A stretch of DNA of 64,000 nucleotides from Eledone cirrhosa. Taxonomy: Eukaryota. Each line of letters begins with the position of its first letter. The first letter of the stretch is position 1. The notes beneath the pieces are model-generated. The model saw only the letters and a list, made by a program, of their open reading frames with translations. It ran no database searches and was not told the origin of the DNA. Both the position numbers and the translations under genes were made by a program. This document shows, piece after piece, positions 1-33,881 of the stretch. The stretch is from NCBI GenBank assembly GCA_964016885.1, contig OZ024742.1, positions 98,890,001 to 98,954,000 of the forward strand, written 5' to 3'.

Positions 1-1935
1 TATTGCAGGGGTATATTTCAGGGGGACACTCTCTCTGTGATATTATTCATCTTGTCATTAAACCCCTTGTCCTTTCTGCTCAAGAAATGTGAGGGATACA
101 TCATTGGCTCACAGGAGAACAGAAATACGAACCTAGCCCATAATTTCTTTGTGGACGATCTGAAACTCTATGCCAAGAACATGAATGGGATGAGGAAAAA
201 TCTTGACCTGGTTACAACGTTCTCAAAGGATATAGGAATGCAGTTTGGCCAAGATAAATGCTCATACATGACTGTAAAGCGGGGAAAACAACAACCCAAT
301 CTAGGAACATTGTCATCAATGGCCTAACTGTTTCACCGACATCTGAGGACTGCTACAGATACCTGGGGATAGATGAGAACATATCCTATAATGGTATCTG
401 TAATAAAGAACGCGTAACCAGGGAATTCTACAGCCGAATAAGAAAGATCTGGTCATCGGAACTCTCTGCGCAAAACAAAACAATGGCTCACAATGTGTTT
501 GCTGTGCCTGTCCTACCACCAACGTTTGGAATACTCAATTAGACGATAGACGAAATCCGAGCAGTTGATGTTGGAACTCGAAAAATACTGAACAACACCG
601 GAAACTTCCACATCAACAGTGATATAGACCGCCTTTACTTGAAACGTAAGCAGGGAGGCAGAGGCCTAACATTAGTCTAGACAACATTTGAATGTCGCAT
701 CATATCTCTCCGACAACATCTACGAACCTCGAAGCGTAGGAGCCCGATTCTCGAGCAAATCTATCTGCATGAAACAGATAAGATCCTGAGAGTTGGGAAG
801 GAACTCCTCGAGAGATATTCCCTGTGTGATAATCAAAATCCTACACCCAGGGATGTCGCTCAGCAGTATCGCAGTGACTCCATGGATAAAAAACTGCATG
901 TCTATCAGCAAAAAATCATGCATTGATATGTTGCCAGGAAGCTCCAGAGTGAGAGTAATATAGATAAGGAAAGTAGGCTATCTTGGACCAACAACCGCTA
1001 TATTGGCTCCACTTTGAAGGATAAGCTTTTGCAATCCAGGAATAGGAGATTAGCACGAAATACCTGATTCACAAAAGAGATAGGGATGCAGGCAAAACAC
1101 CTTGATGTGATACCAAGTGCAGACTCTGCAGAACAAACATCGATGTCATCAGCAGCTGTCCAAAATGTCATCGCGGTACTATCTACCTATGAGGCATGAT
1201 GTTGTGGCCAAAACTCTGTACAATGCTGTTCGTAAAAAAGATAGCCCCAATAATAAACACATTAAAAGCTACAGCAATGTGGAACACATCCATGTACATA
1301 ATATGAAAGAGTACTGTTGGAATGTTCCAGTAAAAACCCCAATAAAATGAAAGCATAACAGACCAGACATTATGATATGGGACAGGGAGAAGAAAGCATG
1401 CACAGTAGTGGGAATTAGCTGCCCAGCAGATGCCAATATAATATCAAGGATTAGTGAAAAGGAGATTATTTATGCAGAACTGATGAGAAATCTGCAGATA
1501 CTCCAACCTGATTACACCTTCAGATTTATGCCTGTGATTATTGGGGCACTGGGATATGTTAGTAACTGCCTCAATACAAATCTTGAGAAGCTAGGCTTCA
1601 CAGGAACAGAAAGAACACAACTAGTTAGGAAATTACAAGTACAATCCATTAATGGAACAGTAAAAATATGTAAAACATTCCAAAAATGTTGCATCTAATA
1701 ACTGCATATACACATGTACAGATGCAAAGCATATACACATGTACACATACAACTCAAAACATCCACATCCACACATACAATAACATCATATCTACACATG
1801 CATGCATACATACATATCTACCTAGTTGATGTTGTGTAAATTCCAATGAGAGAGTCTTGTGTCTATGTTAGAAACCGACTCTCTCGCTATTTGTAAAACT
1901 TTGTGAAATTATAAAACCAGAAGAACATACATACA
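1..1935 (+). mobile_element. Decayed RLE-type non-LTR retrotransposon (R4/Dong-like), 3' part
   Basis: RT motifs GIFQGDTLS and FFVDDLKLY, YRYLG, GGRGL, a CCHC-like zinc knuckle (CRLC...RHD), restriction-like endonuclease segment (RPDIMIWD...ISCP...PVIIGALG), then a 3' UTR ending in TACA repeats. Stops and frameshifts throughout. Confidence 0.85.
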
Positions 1936-13364: not shown

Positions 13365-16090
13365 CACCAGGGCATCAAAGAGTGGGACAAGTACAATGGG
13401 GGGGGGGGGTTACATAAAAAGGTGTCCTCAATAAGGAGGAGGCAATAACAAAATATAAAAATATAAAAATATAAAATATAACAAAAATAAATTGAATAAC
13501 AAAATCCTCAATAGGGATGGGGCGCCTTGGAGGGCCGCACACACCCGCGAAAAAAGTGTGCAACCCTTTTCCTCGGGAGAGAGGGTGCTCCCTTGATCTT
13601 TTATCTTTCTCACTTACAGTCTGATGCCATTCTCGCCACTTTCACCCATCTTTCATAAAAGCGGCTGGGGTGCAGCACCTCTCTCTCCATCCTGATCCTT
13701 CTTCCGAAATGATATCGGAAGAAACGGATCAGTTGTTGGCCAGAGAGAAAGGTGTCTGACCTCAGTCCTTTCAGACGCGTCCACCATACAACCTCTTTCA
13801 CCATGGCTATTACGCACAGAAACACCGTCTCTCCTTCATTTTTGAAGAGGGGAGGAGGCTTGATCGTTACAATAAACTCGGTGGTCAACCGGATCGGTCC
13901 CACCCTTGACATCTGTCGTTCGACATAGCCCCACAGGTCGGCAATGCCCGAGCAGTGTACCAATACATGTGCAACGGTTTCCTCGTCGCACACGCATCTG
14001 GGACAGATCTTTTTCGAGGGGTCACTACCCGGGCGCCTGTGTCTGTAGAGCATTTTTCGAACGGGCAGAGTCCCTCGGAAGCACTGCCAGGCCAGGGACC
14101 TCTGGAAGTTATCCATAGGTCCCGGGCTGAATGTCCCCTCGAACGGGTCCGCCTGTCAGAGAGCCGTTAGTGCCTGGGCACACTCTGTGTTCCAGGCGCC
14201 CAGTTTTCTCGGTCTTTGCTTGACCCAGGATTGCAGCTAGGTGAGCGAGACGAGTCAGGGAAAGGCTCGCCTCACGAACGGGGCCCACACCGGTTGAACG
14301 GTGAGGAATACCTGGAGGTGCCGTAGCCTTAATGCGTGTTTACGCATCATCAGCCACGGCATCCCCAGCCCTCCTTTCGAAGGGTGGACAGCAGATGGAT
14401 CTCCTCACATAGGAGCCCGCTTCTTCCAAAGGAATTGGAAGAGTGCGCGCTCCATTTTGGCGAGCGTTTCCCTTCGGCAAGGCACGACGGTCAGGCGGTA
14501 GTAGATGACGGACGCTATATAAGTGTTCGCCAGCTCCGTCCGAACTTTCAGGGACAGTTTGCACTCGGCCCACTTCTGGGTAGTGCAAACTCCCTGTTCG
14601 TTACCTCACCCCAGTTCTTCTCCTCCTGGAGGTCTGGTCCGAACCAGACCCCGAGCAACTTCACCGGGCCCTCCGTCCAGCGCCCGACGACGCCATCGGA
14701 GTGCATCGATTTGCCCATCCACGTTCCGAGTTGCAAACCGATCGACTTGTCCCGGTTTAGCTTAGCCCCTGTAAACCTGTCGTACTCCTCCAGTAAGGTG
14801 CCGATCGCCCCGATTTCCGAGGCCGTCGACACCATTACGGTTACGTCATCGGCGTAGGCGGACACCGCTTTCCGCAATCCCGGTTCCAACGGGATGCCCT
14901 GCAACAACATCAACTTCCGCAACAGTGGCTCTAGCGCCATTACATACAGAAGGGAGAAGAGAGGGCAACCTTGTCGGATGGACCGTGCGATTTCGAACGG
15001 CTCCGAGAGGTAGCCATTCACCTTGACTCTAGAGCAGATGCGGCTGCTGTGCATGGCAGTGATCCAACCCCTGAAAACAGGTCAGAAGCCTGCCGCCGCT
15101 AGCACCGCATCCAGATAACCATGGTCGACCCTATCAAATGCCTTAGATTGATCCAAGTTGATCAGGGCCCCACCAAAGCCGGGTTCGTTCCCAACCCTCT
15201 CTATGATGTATCGCATGAGGTGGAGGTTGTCCTGGATGGACCTCGACGGGATAGCACATGTCTGCCCATCTCCCACCCGGTTGCCCACGACAAGCGCCTA
15301 CCTCTTTGCTAGCACCTTGGCCAACATCTGTAACTCTGTATTTAGCAGAGTTATGGGCCTAAAATTATTTATATCGTCCCCCTTGTTCTCGTCCTTCCTC
15401 ATTAGCGTGACTACGCCCTTGGTCACAGCACAGGGAATCCTCCGGTCCTTTTGCCAGTTGCAGTTTACCGCCTCGAGGAGATCGGGGAACAAGTCCGGCA
15501 TAGCTAGATATAGTTCGTATGGAAGACCATCGAGACCCGGGGATTTTCGTTTGCCGCATTGGCTCAGCACGTTATCTATCTCAGCGGCTGAAATCGGCTC
15601 CTCGCAGGACTTCGCCTCCATGACCGTGAGACGCGGCAGGCCGTCGAGGTATGGACCGAAGTCCACTTCCCCAACCGGCTCCCCGCCCCTTCCGAACAAT
15701 CTGGCAAAGTGCTTTTGAAAAGCCTCGCACATCTGCTTAGGTTCAAGGATCACCCGACCATCCTGGTCTCGCAAAGACCGGATAGTTGATTTACTCCCTC
15801 TTTTGGCTTCTGTCACGCGGGCCCAGCTAACAGCTTTGGTCCCCTCGTTTCCCAGAGCACATATTTTGCTTCGGACGATGCAGCCTTCGTGTTTCGCGTC
15901 GAAGAACTGGCCCAGGGCCGTTCTCGACGCTAGCACTCTGGCCACGTCGCCGCTTCTAATTGCCTCTTCTACACTATCTACCAACTCCCTTTCGTTCCTA
16001 TTTCTATTTGAGGCTAACTCCTTACTAAATTCTATAGAGACTACTGTAATCTCTCTTTTGAGAGATCCCCACCAACTGCTGTTGACGATA
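13365..16090 (-). mobile_element. 5'-truncated L1/Tx1-like LINE (ORF2 RT plus C-terminal CCHC), disrupted
   Basis: KSPGLDGLP, NFRPITLLN, LDQSKAFDRVDH, IRQGCPL, AYADDVT, CPRC...ET..H...C. Frameshifts and an internal deletion relative to the 59.5-62.5 kb copy. Confidence 0.9.
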
Positions 16091-16890
16091 GAATGGTAGC
16101 GTCAATACTAAGAGTAGACAGTTTTTTCACCACAAGTTTTGGAGGAGTGATATTTCTCAGCAAAATAACTGGCGTTCCCTCTTTCAGAACCAATGTATTA
16201 GGAGGTAAACCGGGAGGATTTAAAGAATTTAGAAATTCAACTGGATAATTGAGCGCATCCTGTGGATCACATATAGAATCAATAGATTTATATATCCGTG
16301 GACATCCAGGAAGAAGCTGAGGAATTTGATCGTTAATACAGCTAACCGTGATATTTTTGGGTGCAAGAATGGCTCTTTCAGTTAGCCAATCAAGATTCGT
16401 ATAGTTATCACGCAAGTTAGGGAATACAGTCGCCTTGAGATCATCGACAGTTTCAACTACATTGCAGATGTGGTCAATTGCTATGTGTCCATCTGTATCC
16501 GGAGGTAAGTTACCATCTCCTATTGTAAGCATATCTCCAGAAAATACTGATGACAGAGGGTCCCCATGCAATCTTGCACGCATGTCGGTAATTAGTCTTA
16601 ATGATGTCACTTGTCTCCACAATCGCTCTTCAGTAGGCAGCGGTTGCAGTGATCCAATGAGATGATACACCTGGCCCTGTACTTTGAAAGTCAGCATAAA
16701 TCCATCTTTCTTCAGACGTTTTGCACCGAAAGAGGTCATTTGAAACGCAATGTTGTACTGTCGGATATGCTTCAGAAAATCACGTGATTGTGAATGTTTA
16801 CCTGTTAGAAGCATCTGGAGAGGTTGCGGTGGTTCCCTAAGGGTGGGCAAATTAACCTTACCATTGGAGTAGCACATTGCAGCTGATTCT
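16091..16890 (-). mobile_element. Helitron RepHel fragment with internal deletion
   Basis: N-terminal Helitron motifs (GKVNLP...FLKHIRQYN.AFQMTSFG...FKVQGQVYH.IGSL) are fused in frame to Pif1-like helicase C-terminal motifs (L..DMR, ERAILAPKN, YPVEFLNSL.PPGLP, L.LK.G.PVILLRN). Confidence 0.85.
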
Positions 16891-17456
16891 AGACTGCTGC
16901 GAGATTAGGCCCTTACCGCGAAAATTAACACTTAATATAGTGAAACAAGTGAAAACAAGAAGTGTTTTTTTAACTTTGAAAGTGCAACAAATTTTTGTTT
17001 GTATCAACAAGGCTTATGAAAGTAGCGATACCGACTTTGGGGGTTTTACAGACGACGACATTCAGAATAGACAAGAAACAAACGATAATATTAGTGATTT
17101 ATCTTCAAATGAATTTGATGTTTATATTTCTGAAATTTCGTCCGACGATAATTGTTGTTTTGAAAGTGAAAATGAAGGTCTCCATATCTCCCCTCTCTCA
17201 CTCTCTTTATAAGGATTGTTAATAAAGTTTGTTATCTCCCTTACATCATGGACTTTAGAAAAAATAATTTTTGGTATCGATAATTTTGGTATCGATTTTT
17301 TATTGCTCAACGTGGGTCGATTTGAAAAATGTTTGTAATGTTACCATCCTAGCGACAGGTGCAGCGTGCGTAGAAAAATTTGGTCAAATTCGGTTGGGAA
17401 TTGTAAAAGCCTTAGGTATCCACATTTGTACACAGACACACACACATCCTCGCTTT

Positions 17457-17497
<41 letters not shown>

Positions 17498-17503
<6 letters not shown>

Positions 17504-20500
17504 AAGTGAGTCCTTCATCAGTGACCCTCCAACCGTCCTCGGCATTTCATCGCTTTAAGGGCCATATGCCTCAGGTTGGTGCGAACAACGGCTAAAAAAA
17601 GTCGTTGGGACACGTAAATAAAGGGGGACGCTAGAGTAACAACAAAGGGGTTTAAGCAACGGAAAGTGAGTAGAAATAGACAAGTCCCAGATCTATATGG
17701 CCCTTAAAGCGATGAAATGCCGAGGACGGTTGGAGGGTCACTGATGAAGGACTCACTTTTTCATATGTATCCCATTTGCAACGCCGCAGCTCCATTATTA
17801 TCATCATATTTACACATATTACTTTTCCATACTGCCTGTCTGTTTCGTTCCTTGTATCTTTACCACTTCTAGCAGTCTCCCTCACTGTTATTCTCTCCTC
17901 AACTTTCACTCACTCATTCTCTGTCACTACCTCTCCTCCTCCTCTTTCCTCCTCCTCCTTCAAGTTTGACCTGTGTGTAATTCTTTTCTCGCGCAGTCTT
18001 GACCGAGCTGGTATGGAATTTTTTTCTCTCTCTCTTTCGTCGGCGACTTCACAAAACTTGCGTTTACCGAATTCGTAGACCAGACGACTTTATCTTCTTC
18101 TTCTTCTTCTTCTTCTTCCTCTTCTCTCCTTTTTCTTTCTCTCTCTCTCTCTTTTTTCCCCCCCGTCAAACTTGGGCGAAATTCTTTCCTTGCTCACATT
18201 TCTACCAGGTTCGATGGTCTTTCGTCTCTTGTTCACGATTTCACAGAGTTTATATTCATAGAGATCTGGGACTTGTCTATTTCTACTCACTTTCCGTTGC
18301 TTAAACCCCTTTGTTGTTACTCTAGCGTCCCCCTTTATTTACGTGTCCCAACGACTTTTTTTAGCCGTTGTTCGCACCAACCTGAGGCATATGGCCCTTA
18401 AAGCGATGAAATGCCGAGGACGGTTGGAGGGTCACTGATGAAGGACTCACTTTTTCATATGTATCCCATTTGCAACGCCGCAGCTCCATTATTATCATCA
18501 TATTTACACATATTACTTTTCCATGCTGCCTGTCTGTTTCGTTCCTTGTATCTTTACCACTTCTAGCAGTCTCCCTCTCTGTTACTCTCTCCTCAACTTT
18601 CACTCACTCATTCTCTGTCACTACCTCTCCTCCTCCTCTTTCCTCCTCCTCCTTCAAGTTTGACCTGTGTGTAATTCTTTTCTCGCGCAGTCTTGACCGA
18701 GCTGGTATGGAATTTTTTTCTCTCTCTCTTTCGTCTGCGACTTCACAAAACTTGCGTTTACCGTATTCGTAGACCAGACGACTTTATCTTCTTCTTCTTC
18801 TTCTTCTTCTTCTTCTTCTTCTTCTTCTTCTTCTTCTTCTTCTTCTTCTTCTTCTTCCTCTTCTCTCCTTTTTCTTTCTCTCTCTCTCTCTTTTTTCCCC
18901 CCCGTCAAACTTGGGCGAAATTCTTTCCTTGCTCACATTTCTACCAGGTTCGATGGTCTTTCGTCTCTTGTTCACGATTTCACAGAGTTTATATTCATAG
19001 AGATCTGGGACTTGTCTATTTCTACTCACTTTCCGTTGCTTAAACCCCTTTGTTGTTACTCTAGCGTCCCCCTTTATTTACGTGTCCCAACGACTTTTTT
19101 TAGCCGTTGTTCGCACCAACCTAAGGCATATGGCCCTTAAAGCGATGAAATGCCGAGGACGGTTGGAGGGTCACTGATGAAGGACTCACTTTTTCATATG
19201 TATCCCATTTGCAACGCCGCAGCTCCATTATTATCATCATATTTACACATATTACTTTTCCATGTTGCCTGTCTGTTTCGTTCCTTGTATCTTTACCACT
19301 TCTAGCAGTCTCCCTCTCTGTTACTCTCTCCTCAACTTTCACTCACTCATTCTCTGTCACTACCTCTCCTCCTCCTCTTTCCTCCTCCTCCTTCAAGTTT
19401 GACCTGTGTGTAATTCTTTTCTCGCGCAGTCTTGACCGAGCTGGTATGGAATTTTTTTCTCTCTCTCTTTCGTCTGCGACTTCACAAAACTTGCGTTTAC
19501 CGAATTCGTAGACCAGACGACTTTATCTTCTTCTTCTTCTTCTTCTTCTTCTTCTTCTTCTTCTTCTTCTTCTTCTTCTTCTTCTTCTTCTTCTTCTTCT
19601 TCTTCTTCTTCTTCTTCCTCTTCTCTCCTTTTTCTTTCTCTCTCTCTCTCTTTTTTCCCCCCCGTCAAACTTGGGCGAAATTCTTTCCTTGCTCACATTT
19701 CTACCAGGTTCGATAGTCTTTCGTCTCTTGTTCACGATTTCACAGAGTTTATATTCATAGAGATCTGGGACTTGTCTATTTCTACTCACTTTCCGTTGCT
19801 TAAACCCCTTTGTTGTTACTCTAGCGTCCCCCTTTATTTACGTGTCCCAACGACTTTTTTTAGCCGTTGTTCGCACCAACCTGAGGCATATGGCCCTTAA
19901 AGCGATGAAATGCCGAGGACGGTTGGAGGGTCACTGATGAAGGACTCACTTTTTCATATGTATCCCATTTGCAACGCCGCAGCTCCATTATTATCATCAT
20001 ATTTACACATATTACTTTTCCATGTTGCCTGTCTGTTTCGTTCCTTGTATCTTTACCACTTCTAGCAGTCTCCCTCTCTGTTACTCTCTCCTCAACTTTC
20101 ACTCACTCATTCTCTGTCACTACCTCTCCTCCTCCTCTTTCCTCCTCCTCCTTCAAGTTTGACCTGTGTGTAATTCTTTTCTCGCGCAGTCTTGACCGAG
20201 CTGGTATGGAATTTTTTTCTCTCTCTCTTTCGTCTGCGACTTCACAAAACTTGCGTTTACCGTATTCGTAGACCAGACGACTTTATCTTCTTCTTCTTCT
20301 TCTTCTTCTTCTTCTTCTTCTTCTTCTTCTTCTTCTTCTTCTTCTTCTTCTTCTTCCTCTTCTCTCCTTTTTCTTTCTCTCTCTCTCTCTTTTTTCCCCC
20401 CCGTCAAACTTGGGCGAAATTCTTTCCTTGCTCACATTTCTACCAGGTTCGATGGTCTTTCGTCTCTTGTTCACGATTTCACAGAGTTTATATTCATAGA

Positions 20501-22972
20501 GATCTGGGACTTGTCTATTTCTACTCACTTTCCGTTGCTTAAACCCCTTTGTTGTTACTCTAGCGTCCCCCTTTATTTACGTGTCCCAACGACTTTTTTT
20601 AGCCGTTGTTCGCACCAACCTAAGGCATATGGCCCTTAAAGCGATGAAATGCCGAGGACGGTTGGAGGGTCACTGATGAAGGACTCACTTTTTCATATGT
20701 ATCCCATTTGCAACGCCGCAGCTCCATTATTATCATCATATTTACACATATTACTTTTCCATGTTGCCTGTCTGTTTCGTTCCTTGTATCTTTACCACTT
20801 CTAGCAGTCTCCCTCTCTGTTACTCTCTCCTCAACTTTCACTCACTCATTCTCTGTCACTACCTCTCCTCCTCCTCTTTCCTCCTCCTCCTTCAAGTTTG
20901 ACCTGTGTGTAATTCTTTTCTCGCGCAGTCTTGACCGAGCTGGTATGGAATTTTTTTCTCTCTCTCTTTCGTCTGCGACTTCACAAAACTTGCGTTTACC
21001 GAATTCGTAGACCAGACGACTTTATCTTCTTCTTCTTCTTCTTCTTCTTCTTCTTCTTCTTCTTCTTCTTCTTCTTCTTCTTCTTCTTCTTCTTCTTCTT
21101 CTTCTTCTTCTTCTTCTTCCTCTTCTCTCCTTTTTCTTTCTCTCTCTCTCTCTTTTTTCCCCCCCGTCAAACTTGGGCGAAATTCTTTCCTTGCTCACAT
21201 TTCTACCAGGTTCGATAGTCTTTCGTCTCTTGTTCACGATTTCACAGAGTTTATATTCATAGAGATCTGGGACTTGTCTATTTCTACTCACTTTCCGTTG
21301 CTTAAACCCCTTTGTTGTTACTCTAGCGTCCCCCTTTATTTACGTGTCCCAACGACTTTTTTTAGCCGTTGTTCGCACCAACCTGAGGCATATGGCCCTT
21401 AAAGCGATGAAATGCCGAGGACGGTTGGAGGGTCACTGATGAAGGACTCACTTTTTCATATGTATCCCATTTGCAACGCCGCAGCTCCATTATTATCATC
21501 ATATTTACACATATTACTTTTCCATGTTGCCTGTCTGTTTCGTTCCTTGTATCTTTACCACTTCTAGCAGTCTCCCTCTCTGTTACTCTCTCCTCAACTT
21601 TCACTCACTCATTCTCTGTCACTACCTCTCCTCCTCCTCTTTCCTCCTCCTCCTTAAAGTTTGACCTGTGTGTAATTCTTTTCTCGCGCAGTCTTGACCG
21701 AGCTGGTATGGAATTTTTTTCTCTCTCTCTTTCGTCTGCGACTTCACAAAACTTGCGTTTACCGAATTCGTAGACCAGACCACTTTATCTTCTTCTTCTT
21801 CTTCTTCTTCTTCTTCTTCTTCTTCTTCTTCCTCTTCTCTCCTTTTTTCTTTCTCTCTCTCTCTCTCTTTTTTCCCCCACGTCAAACTTGGGCGAAATTC
21901 TTTCCTTGCTCACATTTCTACCAGGTTCGATGGTCTTTCGTCTCTTGTTCACGATTTCACAGAGTTTATATTCATAGAGATCTGGGACTTGTCTATTTCT
22001 ACTCACTTTCCGTTGCTTAAACCCCTTTGTTATTACTCTAGCGTCCCCCTTTATTTACGTGTCCCAACGACTTTTTTTAGCCGTTGTTCGCACCAACCTG
22101 AGGCATATGGCCCTTAAAGCGATGAAATGCCGAGGACGGTTGGAGGGTCACTGATGAAGGACTCACTTTTTCATATGTATCCCATTTGCAACGCCGCAGC
22201 TCCATTATTATCATCATATTTACACATATTACTTTTCCATGCTGCCTGTCTGTTTCGTTCCTTGTATCTTTACCACTTCTAGCAGTCTCCCTCTCTGTTA
22301 CTCTCTCCTCAACTTTCACTCACTCATTCTCTGTCACTACCTCTCCTCCTCCTCTTTCCTCCTCCACCTTCAAGTTTGACCTGTGTGTAATTCTTTTCTC
22401 GCGCAGTCTTGACCGAGCTGGTATGGAATTTTTTTCTCTCTCTCTTTCGTCTGCGACTTCACAAAACTTGCGTTTACCGAATTCGTAGACCAGACGACTT
22501 TATCTTCTTCTTCTTCTTCTTCTTCTTCTTCTTCTTCTTCTTCTTCTTCTTCTTCTTCTTCTTCTTCTTCTTCTTCTTCTTCTTCTTCTTCTTCCTCTTC
22601 TCTCCTTTTTCTTTCTCTCTCTCTCTCTTTTTTCCCCCCCGTCAAACTTGGGCGAAATTCTTTCCTTGCTCACATTTCTACCAGGTTCGATGGTCTTTCG
22701 TCTCTTGTTCACGATTTCACAGAGTTTATATTCATAGAGATCTGGGACTTGTCTATTTCTACTCACTTTCCGTTGCTTAAACCCCTTTGTTGTTACTCTA
22801 GCGTCCCCCTTTATTTACGTGTCCCAACGACTTTTTTTAGCCGTTGTTCGCACCAACCTGAGGCACATGGCCCTTAAAGCGATGAAATGCCGAGGACGGT
22901 TGGAGGGTCACTGATGAAGGACTCACTTTTTCATATGTATCCCATTTGCAACGCCGCAGCTCCATTATTATC

Positions 22973-22974
<2 letters not shown>
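17498..22974 (+). repeat. Tandem array of a ~0.7 kb non-coding unit with internal (TTC)n and a 5' inverted partial copy; retrozyme/PLE-like
   Basis: Units start at 17698, 18392, 19131, 19891, 20630, 21393, 22108 and 22868 (lengths 694, 739, 760, 739, 763, 715, 760). 17498-17694 is the reverse complement of the unit-junction region. (TA)n flanks both sides. Confidence 0.95.
18377..18474 (+). ncRNA. Candidate hammerhead ribozyme with reversed strand order and a kink-turn (representative copy; recurs at each unit junction)
   Basis: ccaacc-tga-ggca-TA|tggccct-taaa-gcga-t-GAAA-tgcc-gag-ga-c-ggttgg-agggtca-CTGATGA-a... Stems I and III pair in exact hammerhead register, with covariation against the 33247-33345 copy. 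Confidence 0.65.
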
Positions 22975-23034
<60 letters not shown>

Positions 23035-33204: not shown

Positions 33205-33811
33205 AAACGATATATAAACATGAGAAGAAAGAAGAATACTGCGTGGTTGCAAATGGGTTACATATGATAAAGATTGTCCTTCGTCAGTGACTTTCCAACC
33301 ATCATTGGTAATTCATCGCATTAAAAATCCGATACCTCAGGTTGGTGCGAGCAATAAGGAAAAAAAGTTATTGGGACCAGTAATTCGCGTAAAGCGAGGG
33401 GGACAAATAAACAACATAGAAGGATATAAGCAAACCGAAGATAGGAAAATAAACAAGCAACATGGTTGTCCGGTCAGCATAAGCTCGGTAGATTTCATGA
33501 GCGAGAGTTACAAACTGTCCGATGTGTGTGAGATGTAAGCAAGAAGAGACCCACTACAAGCCAAACGGGCGGAAGTGAGAAGGGGAGAAACAGAGAGTGA
33601 GTGAGTGGAAGTGTGAGGAAGAGGTCAGTCGAGAGAAAGTGTAACTGACGGAGGGGGCGAAAGAAGGTGAGAGAAACAGAGAGAGCGGGGAAGCAGTAAG
33701 AGAGAAACAGACAAACGCAGCCGAGGTAAATATATATAAAAAAACATGAGAAGAAAGAAGAATACTGCGTGGTTGCAAATGGGTTACATTTGATAAAATA
33801 GTCCTTCGTCA

Positions 33812-33875
<64 letters not shown>

Positions 33876-33881
33876 TGACGA
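33205..33881 (-). mobile_element. Diverged relative of the 17.5-23 kb array unit (one unit of ~525 bp plus a partial repeat)
   Basis: Direct repeat of ~33208-33290 at ~33731-33815. The reverse complement aligns without gaps to the ribozyme-like region of the array. A short inverted tcactgacga follows a (TA)n tract at ~33872. Confidence 0.8.
33247..33345 (-). ncRNA. Second-family copy of the reversed-order hammerhead/k-turn motif, probably decayed
   Basis: Minus strand: ccaacc-tga-ggta-TC|ggatttt-taa-tgcga-t-GAAt-tacc-aat-ga-t-ggttgg-aaagtca-CTGACGA-a...ttgca. Confidence 0.55.

Follow-up and report, generated by a model that had tools for sequence, protein, structure and literature searches.

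A predicted SGC-type hammerhead ribozyme in a Penelope-like retrozyme of Eledone cirrhosa, and insertion ends that may record its cleavage

The insertion and the element it belongs to

The window, by which we mean the whole stretch of 64,000 nucleotides that was analysed, contains a tandem array inserted into a (TA)n repeat. We number positions so that +1 is the base 3' of the predicted ribozyme cut (17698 in the first unit) and -1 is the base 5' of it. The left flank of the target repeat, evident from the sequence, covers 17460..17499. It is followed by a short inverted arm on the minus strand (17500..17694), which begins at a first fixed 3' end (about +65 to +69), extends back as far as position -130 of the unit and crosses one cut site; the same 3' end adjoins (TA)n in 347 genomic places. 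Past a head-to-head joint (17694..17699) lies a forward arm on the plus strand (17695..22974), where unit alignment gives seven units of 694-763 nt and a partial unit reaching a second fixed 3' end at about +107, roughly 40 nt from the first. The right flank of the target repeat, again evident from the sequence, is 22975..23034. To the left of the insertion, 14300-16900 holds disrupted RT pieces of LINE-like type and part of a Helitron-like helicase (PF21530), all unrelated to it.

Units 3 and 5 of the array have variants in common, which gives it a period-2 structure. The array therefore either copies a multimer of mixed units or underwent later duplication; an origin in seven laps round one monomer circle is unlikely, given these shared variants.

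Alignment identifies a relative in the same window, an insertion of subfamily B on the minus strand (33220..33816), which carries the same ribozyme with compensatory changes and has a second arm of 11 nt (33871-33881). The initial annotation had named this relative as a check on its proposal that the ribozyme gave the template RNA its 5' end, and had listed truncation away from the cut as the outcome that speaks against it. The 5' end indeed lies at +40 and not at the cut, so that, on the annotation's own terms, the relative speaks against the proposal.

All marks of Penelope-like elements (PLEs) are present, namely fixed 3' ends with a tail of 30-40 bp, 5' truncation and an inverted partner copy, together with the Naiad-like preference of the window's family, family A, for (TA)n. 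The retrozyme trait is present too: tandem non-coding units of about 720 nt with one hammerhead each. Of the 347 places, 98 of the first 100 listed were mapped. Their median arm is 620 nt, their 5' ends are scattered across the whole unit, and a second inverted arm is joined head to head in 34 of them. In these 98 mapped insertions the cut site was read through about 132 times, and ends at -1 occur in L087 among the 98 first arms and in L068 and L080 among the 34 second arms. The family was found in two organisms (three contig runs were searched).

The unit contains no ORF; the Naiad clade's ORF, with an N-terminal GIY-YIG domain and RT, is therefore absent from family A. Hence the element is a non-autonomous dependant of Penelope-like type, an animal retrozyme, and judged by its ORF content it is not a member of the Naiads, although it is most likely mobilised by a Naiad-type enzyme. 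In the loci examined, an ORF scan and a Pfam scan of 12 of 92 ORFs (no match to a PLE family) did not reveal an autonomous partner: the PLE ORFs there are of other types or lack this ribozyme, and no SGC motif lies near PLE-like ORFs. One such locus (L099:1838-4597, minus strand) encodes a PLE-like ORF of 920 aa with a C-terminal GIY-YIG-like domain and no Pfam match. Upstream of it is a minimal hammerhead in the classical order, so that both hammerhead types occur in one genome. Two long arrays, one of at least 13 units of about 630 nt (G000:C1:132609145-132616815) and one of about 27 units of about 730 nt (G000:C2:54547246-54566354), are candidate donor loci for multimeric transcripts.

The predicted ribozyme

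Within one unit the blocks of a hammerhead follow each other in the order S (cut site), G (GAAA) and C (CUGAUGA). The core is complete, with CUGANGA, GAAA, A15.1-U16.1, H17 and R10.1-Y11.1, and within this core the subfamilies vary at N7 and H17. Thus the cleavage site predicted by the initial annotation, 17697|17698, is the right position if the fold is a hammerhead. Its description of the hammerhead as non-canonical applies to the strand order, which is the unusual part, and not to the core, which is fully canonical.

The fold is best described on a unit of the plus strand. An upstream splint (18345..18375) consists of W1 (18345-47, predicted to pair 3' of CUGAUGA), a hairpin (18349-70) and W2 (18372-75, predicted to pair 5' of GAAA). 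The next segment (18377..18427) holds blocks S, with the cut at 18391|18392, and G, with GAAA at 18408-11. In it stem III (18386-90 with 18411-15) is extended past a 3-nt bulge (18416-18) and the tandem G.A pairs of a predicted kink-turn (18383-85 and 18419-21) into a 6-bp stem (18377-82 with 18422-27), which leaves a gap of 1 nt to stem I. Within the loop closed by stem III lies the 3' strand of stem I, which pairs downstream as a pseudoknot (18392-97 with 18429-34), in a segment (18392..18446) that also contains block C (CUGAUGA at 18435-41). The stem II side has only one direct pair; its remainder would come from the splint helices W1 and W2, which show little covariation within families A and B. 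The upstream strand pairs on either side of the single G10.1-Y11.1 pair.

Covariation was assessed in 16 copies picked from 23 representatives of 109 distinct sequences. With 33 pairs in 16 copies, 93% of 528 cells pair, versus 26-46% in slid controls. Double-sided change occurs in 10 of the 33 pairs (three of six in stem I, one of five in stem III, three in the hairpin and one in W2 are among them, and none in W1), and none of 500 shuffles reached as high. The copies essentially amount to two or three subfamilies, and further pair types are not above shuffles (19 versus 20.9). Positions 10.1 and 11.1 are paired in 15 of the 16 copies, as G-U in 13 and G-C in two. A register with A10.1-U11.1 was dropped in favour of a bulged base and G10.1-Y11.1; two copies have C at 11.1. 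The canonical types I, II and III (CGS, GSC, SCG) within one unit were likewise rejected, there being no GAAA where it would be needed. None of 4,227 Rfam families matched the window in a scan at gathering thresholds. Based on these comparisons we predict, with high confidence, that the fold is a type-SGC hammerhead.

A kink-turn has a 3-nt bulge followed by tandem G.A/A.G pairs between a canonical and a non-canonical stem. In families A and B both G.A positions are invariant or nearly so, and the bulge is variable. The third pair is A.G in a B-like subfamily (L113, L149, L184), U.U in B, and C.U or C.C in A, a change that involves both strands. In the window array a G.A position is altered in two units and U16.1 in the last one (regions 19061-19229, 20560-20730 and 22840-22870). 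Hence three of the forward arm's seven complete ribozymes may be impaired.

A relaxed descriptor applied to the loci examined found two more high-copy families with the same order, for example at L032:2290-2385 (plus strand), at L030 about 410-520 (minus strand) and in L241-L260. Family D has 1,018 candidates (36 copies aligned), a unit of about 804 nt and a 6-nt linker, and no kink-turn. Family E, with 1,512 candidates (22 copies aligned), is older, with about 82% identity between copies, and combines a kink-turn with a 0-nt linker. Both insert into (TA)n. Their block order and stems are those of family A, while the stem sequences are wholly different, and the W1 and W2 splint helices recur with other sequences. 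A stricter descriptor gave no match in 1.0 Mb of reversed sequence. The kink-turn pattern is met in A, B and E and is absent in D. Since a kink-turn goes with a linker of 0-1 nt, and its absence with a longer linker, this suggests that the kink-turn is what brings stem III to stem I.

Insertion ends around the predicted cut

The inverted arm of the window insertion matches the unit exactly up to 17694, with no mismatch to two of seven compared copies and one mismatch to each of the remaining five; the match of the forward arm is exact from 17695, that is, from -3. This bears out the initial annotation's observation that an inverted segment ends near 17694 and forward sequence follows. Its placing of the joint by microhomology within 17695-17699 holds if one mismatch is tolerated at 17695 (C expected, A seen), since the next four bases then fit either arm. 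Strictly, the joint is blunt at 17694|17695, has no microhomology, and lies upstream of the bond predicted to be cleaved, at a distance of 3 nt. The annotation also considered a chance match unlikely. The prior is indeed small, 0.7% per end and 1.4% per two-ended joint for one named 5-nt window; however, the site was chosen post hoc, the inverted arm itself crosses one cut site, and the forward arm crosses seven. Because the exact match starts at 17695 while the predicted cut is at 17697|17698, this locus alone is ambiguous, and we give the view that its joint derives from the cut slightly less than an even chance.

As the initial annotation proposed, the 5' ends of other insertions were tabulated. 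For family A a pattern search sought every copy that is unbroken as far as +7, with two mismatches at -15 and -17, and all 89 rows were scored by script. After removal of eight same-direction indels or jumps and two duplicates, 79 ends over 21 positions remained. The filter misses the window's own joint and L087; hence the counts are lower bounds. There are 11 ends at +1, seven at -1, 12 at -4 (nine of them with TA microhomology, compatible with +1) and 12 at +7. Against a background of 2.3 ends per position (15 positions), +1 is about 5-fold enriched (Poisson P 2.6e-5), and pooling +1 and -1 gives 18 of 79 (binomial P 3.8e-4). If the background is taken from A/T-ending positions alone, it rises to five per position and the excess at +1 has P 0.014. 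The base that follows the +1 ends is G in five cases, A in four and C in two, non-template in all 11, as expected of run-off with untemplated addition. One locus, L292, stops at +1 twice. Four independent +1 ends (L290, L292, L323, L326) each continue with G, A, T, which suggests that these untemplated bases are favoured, or that H17 has an uncommon variant. Among head-to-head ends the script places eight of 17 at +1 or -1. By eye, one end that the script set at +2 belongs at +7 and about four joints were missed, so that the fraction is nearer eight of 21.

The other families show no such peak. In family B, scored by eye among the matches listed (the first 100 of 227 rows, with 13 indels and three duplicates removed), three of 84 ends fall at +1 or -1 where 4.1 are expected. 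In family D, also by eye but over all 48 rows (eight indels and one duplicate removed), none of 39 does where 1.6 are expected; the difference from A in the local window has Fisher P 0.02. Even in family A the ends at the cut are a small minority: at least 1,875 core-bearing copies stand against 18 ends at +1 or -1, which means that 1-2% of passes stop at the cut and 98-99% read through it. The pile of ends at +7..+11 was considered as trimmed run-off products, and this was rejected, other AT-rich spots being equally hot. Thus the proposal of a template 5' end made by the ribozyme is partly supported: the excess at +1 in family A speaks for it, and the absence of a peak in B and D, the read-through, the position of the window joint and the +40 end of the relative speak against it as stated. 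The excess suggests cutting in living cells and, going by the distribution of the ends, we consider it likely that the +1 peak of family A reflects cleavage in vivo.

It may be argued that the fold is real and that the peak at +1 and -1 arises from events at the level of DNA, because the palindromic, TA-like hexamer CATATG encloses the cut and would be favoured by a TA-targeting endonuclease or by microhomology joining. In family A this hexamer occurs at -4..+2 and again at +65..+70, the first fixed 3' end, and family D, which lacks the hexamer, also lacks the peak. A/T-rich spots do gather ends, at +7..+11 in A and B and at about +94..+100 in four of 98 arms among the matches listed, and non-TA bases follow ends at other positions too. 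However, ends with TA microhomology are counted at -4 and not at +1, and all 11 ends at +1 go on with a non-template base, whereas the comparable CA step at -9 leads into a T-starting TA repeat in five of six cases. Moreover, the eight of 17 head-to-head ends found at +1 or -1 are not joined to (TA)n at all. In our opinion this explanation, the main alternative to cleavage, is unlikely. For the window joint itself, an ordinary random 5' truncation at -3 has an even chance, and it is compatible with our explanation for the family: the zero-mismatch reading, the spread of ends across the whole unit and the seven other cut sites crossed by the cDNA speak for it. The low prior for a 5-nt window speaks against it, and the TA-like additions after +1 in L292 and L323 make three template-mimicking bases plausible.

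A further objection is that strands of different units or molecules come together to form a canonical three-way hammerhead, or that the motif is a non-catalytic structure that binds protein. Tandem arrays would permit pairing between units, as in the dimeric PLE hammerheads described in the accessible part of PMC4209133, and a pseudoknot-free energy model favours another fold (-31.2 versus -22.3 kcal/mol for the nested part). Yet the canonical order would take strands from three units, while Naiad consensus sequences have one copy with all stems local. The catalytic bases are fully conserved in five families, and type SGC works as a monomer in vitro according to the accessible part of PMC10085705. 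We regard this objection as very unlikely to hold.

Our preferred explanation, which we consider probable overall, is a PLE retrozyme with an SGC hammerhead in which a minority of template 5' ends are made by the ribozyme. The splint would complete the stem II side, and the kink-turn would bend the long stem III back to join stem I through a linker of 0-2 nt. The enzyme would nick (TA)n and prime two cDNAs at two fixed sites, and the cDNA ends would be joined to each other or to the flank. The templates would mostly be uncut multimers or religated circles, so that most cDNAs read through the cut site. In a small minority of RNAs the ribozyme would have made the 5' end, and there the enzyme would run off at +1 and add a few untemplated bases. 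The joint in the window would then be a run-off of this kind, its three added bases imitating the template, which we hold to be possible at a little under even chances, or an ordinary truncation at -3.

Relation to known systems

For 53 consensus sequences of Naiads (File S5 in the supplement of PMC8557442), the final 330-400 bases were read by eye. Type SGC was recognised in eight of the 53 3' ends: Naiad_Obim, Naiad_Ovul, three Acropora elements, Naiad-3_Chem, Naiad-2_Movir and Naiad_Bfor, the last with a short stem I. The eight amount to about five independent cases. The octopus elements Naiad_Obim and Naiad_Ovul have, by eye, an upstream hairpin, splint and kink-turn as in family A, with a bulge that differs between the two. 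Six others, all from nematodes (three Nbra, Hcon, Hpol and Asuum), were read as type CSG with Watson-Crick pairing in stems I, II and III; no hammerhead was parsed in the part shown of the other 39.

We lean towards the view that Naiads and the non-autonomous arrays bear hammerheads in both non-circular permutations, that elements of ctenophores, cnidarians and cephalopods have SGC (those of octopus, and A, B and E, with a kink-turn) and nematode ones CSG, and that these are present in thousands of copies in animal genomes, with insertion ends that record germ-line cleavage. If this is true, ribozyme forms that had been reported from environmental sequence alone are abundant in animals, and the apparent lack of hammerheads in one whole PLE clade would be explained by descriptors that presumed strands in classical order. 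Natural hammerheads would gain an example with a kink-turn, through which a host protein of the L7Ae family could tune cleavage in the octopus elements and in A, B and E. The ends would also give a sequence-only test of the long-open questions of whether PLE hammerheads cut in vivo and what shares of the templates are cut, uncut or circular. In the literature covered by our search, which left most subscription journals outside, we found no report of SGC or CSG hammerheads from PLEs or from the genomes of animals.

The comparisons that follow refer to the accessible parts of the cited papers. Type SGC hammerheads (HRIMA-1 and variants; Eckert et al. 2023, PMC10085705) cleave in vitro at 0.007-0.19 per minute. 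The non-circular permutations described there come from environmental sequence, CSG from two metagenomic sequences, and that part of the paper places none in the genomes of known organisms except one GCS candidate. The ribozyme described here agrees with type SGC in the S-G-C order, the full core, the pseudoknotted stems I and III and the short linker that connects stem I with the stem II side. It differs in that no fourth helix was found between the far sides of stems I and II, the upstream splint and the kink-turn arm taking its place.

PLE hammerheads are given as type I only in PMC4209133, where dimeric forms are described and circular templates proposed. Like the metazoan non-LTR retrozymes (10.64898/2026.07.22.740005; PMC4209133), which derive from PLE pseudo-LTRs, the present element consists of dispersed, non-coding tandem units with one hammerhead each; unlike them, with their type I hammerheads, it has the SGC order, units of 530-800 nt and clear marks of PLE insertion.

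For Naiads (Craig et al. 2021, PMC8557442) canonical hammerheads are reported absent, with only the labels HHR_core and HHR_half_core. They share with our element the (TA)n target, 5' truncation, an inverted 5'-truncated copy and a tail of 30-40 bp; the (TA)n preference is also given for an element of the Hydra clade and so is not unique. In contrast to Naiads, family A has no ORF, and the likeness of its ribozyme to Naiad 3' ends is one of architecture.

The closest parallel for the insertion process is Poseidon PAc of Anolis (Frangieh et al. 2024, PMC11167929), whose tail arises from two internal starts of reverse transcription. Both have an AT-rich target, and family A would share the two starts and uncut RNA as the main template. 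PAc differs in its hammerhead, which is of type I and protein-assisted. Insertion in Anolis did not depend on hammerhead cleavage, and none of the RNA reads stopped at the cut, whereas in family A genomic ends are in small excess there.
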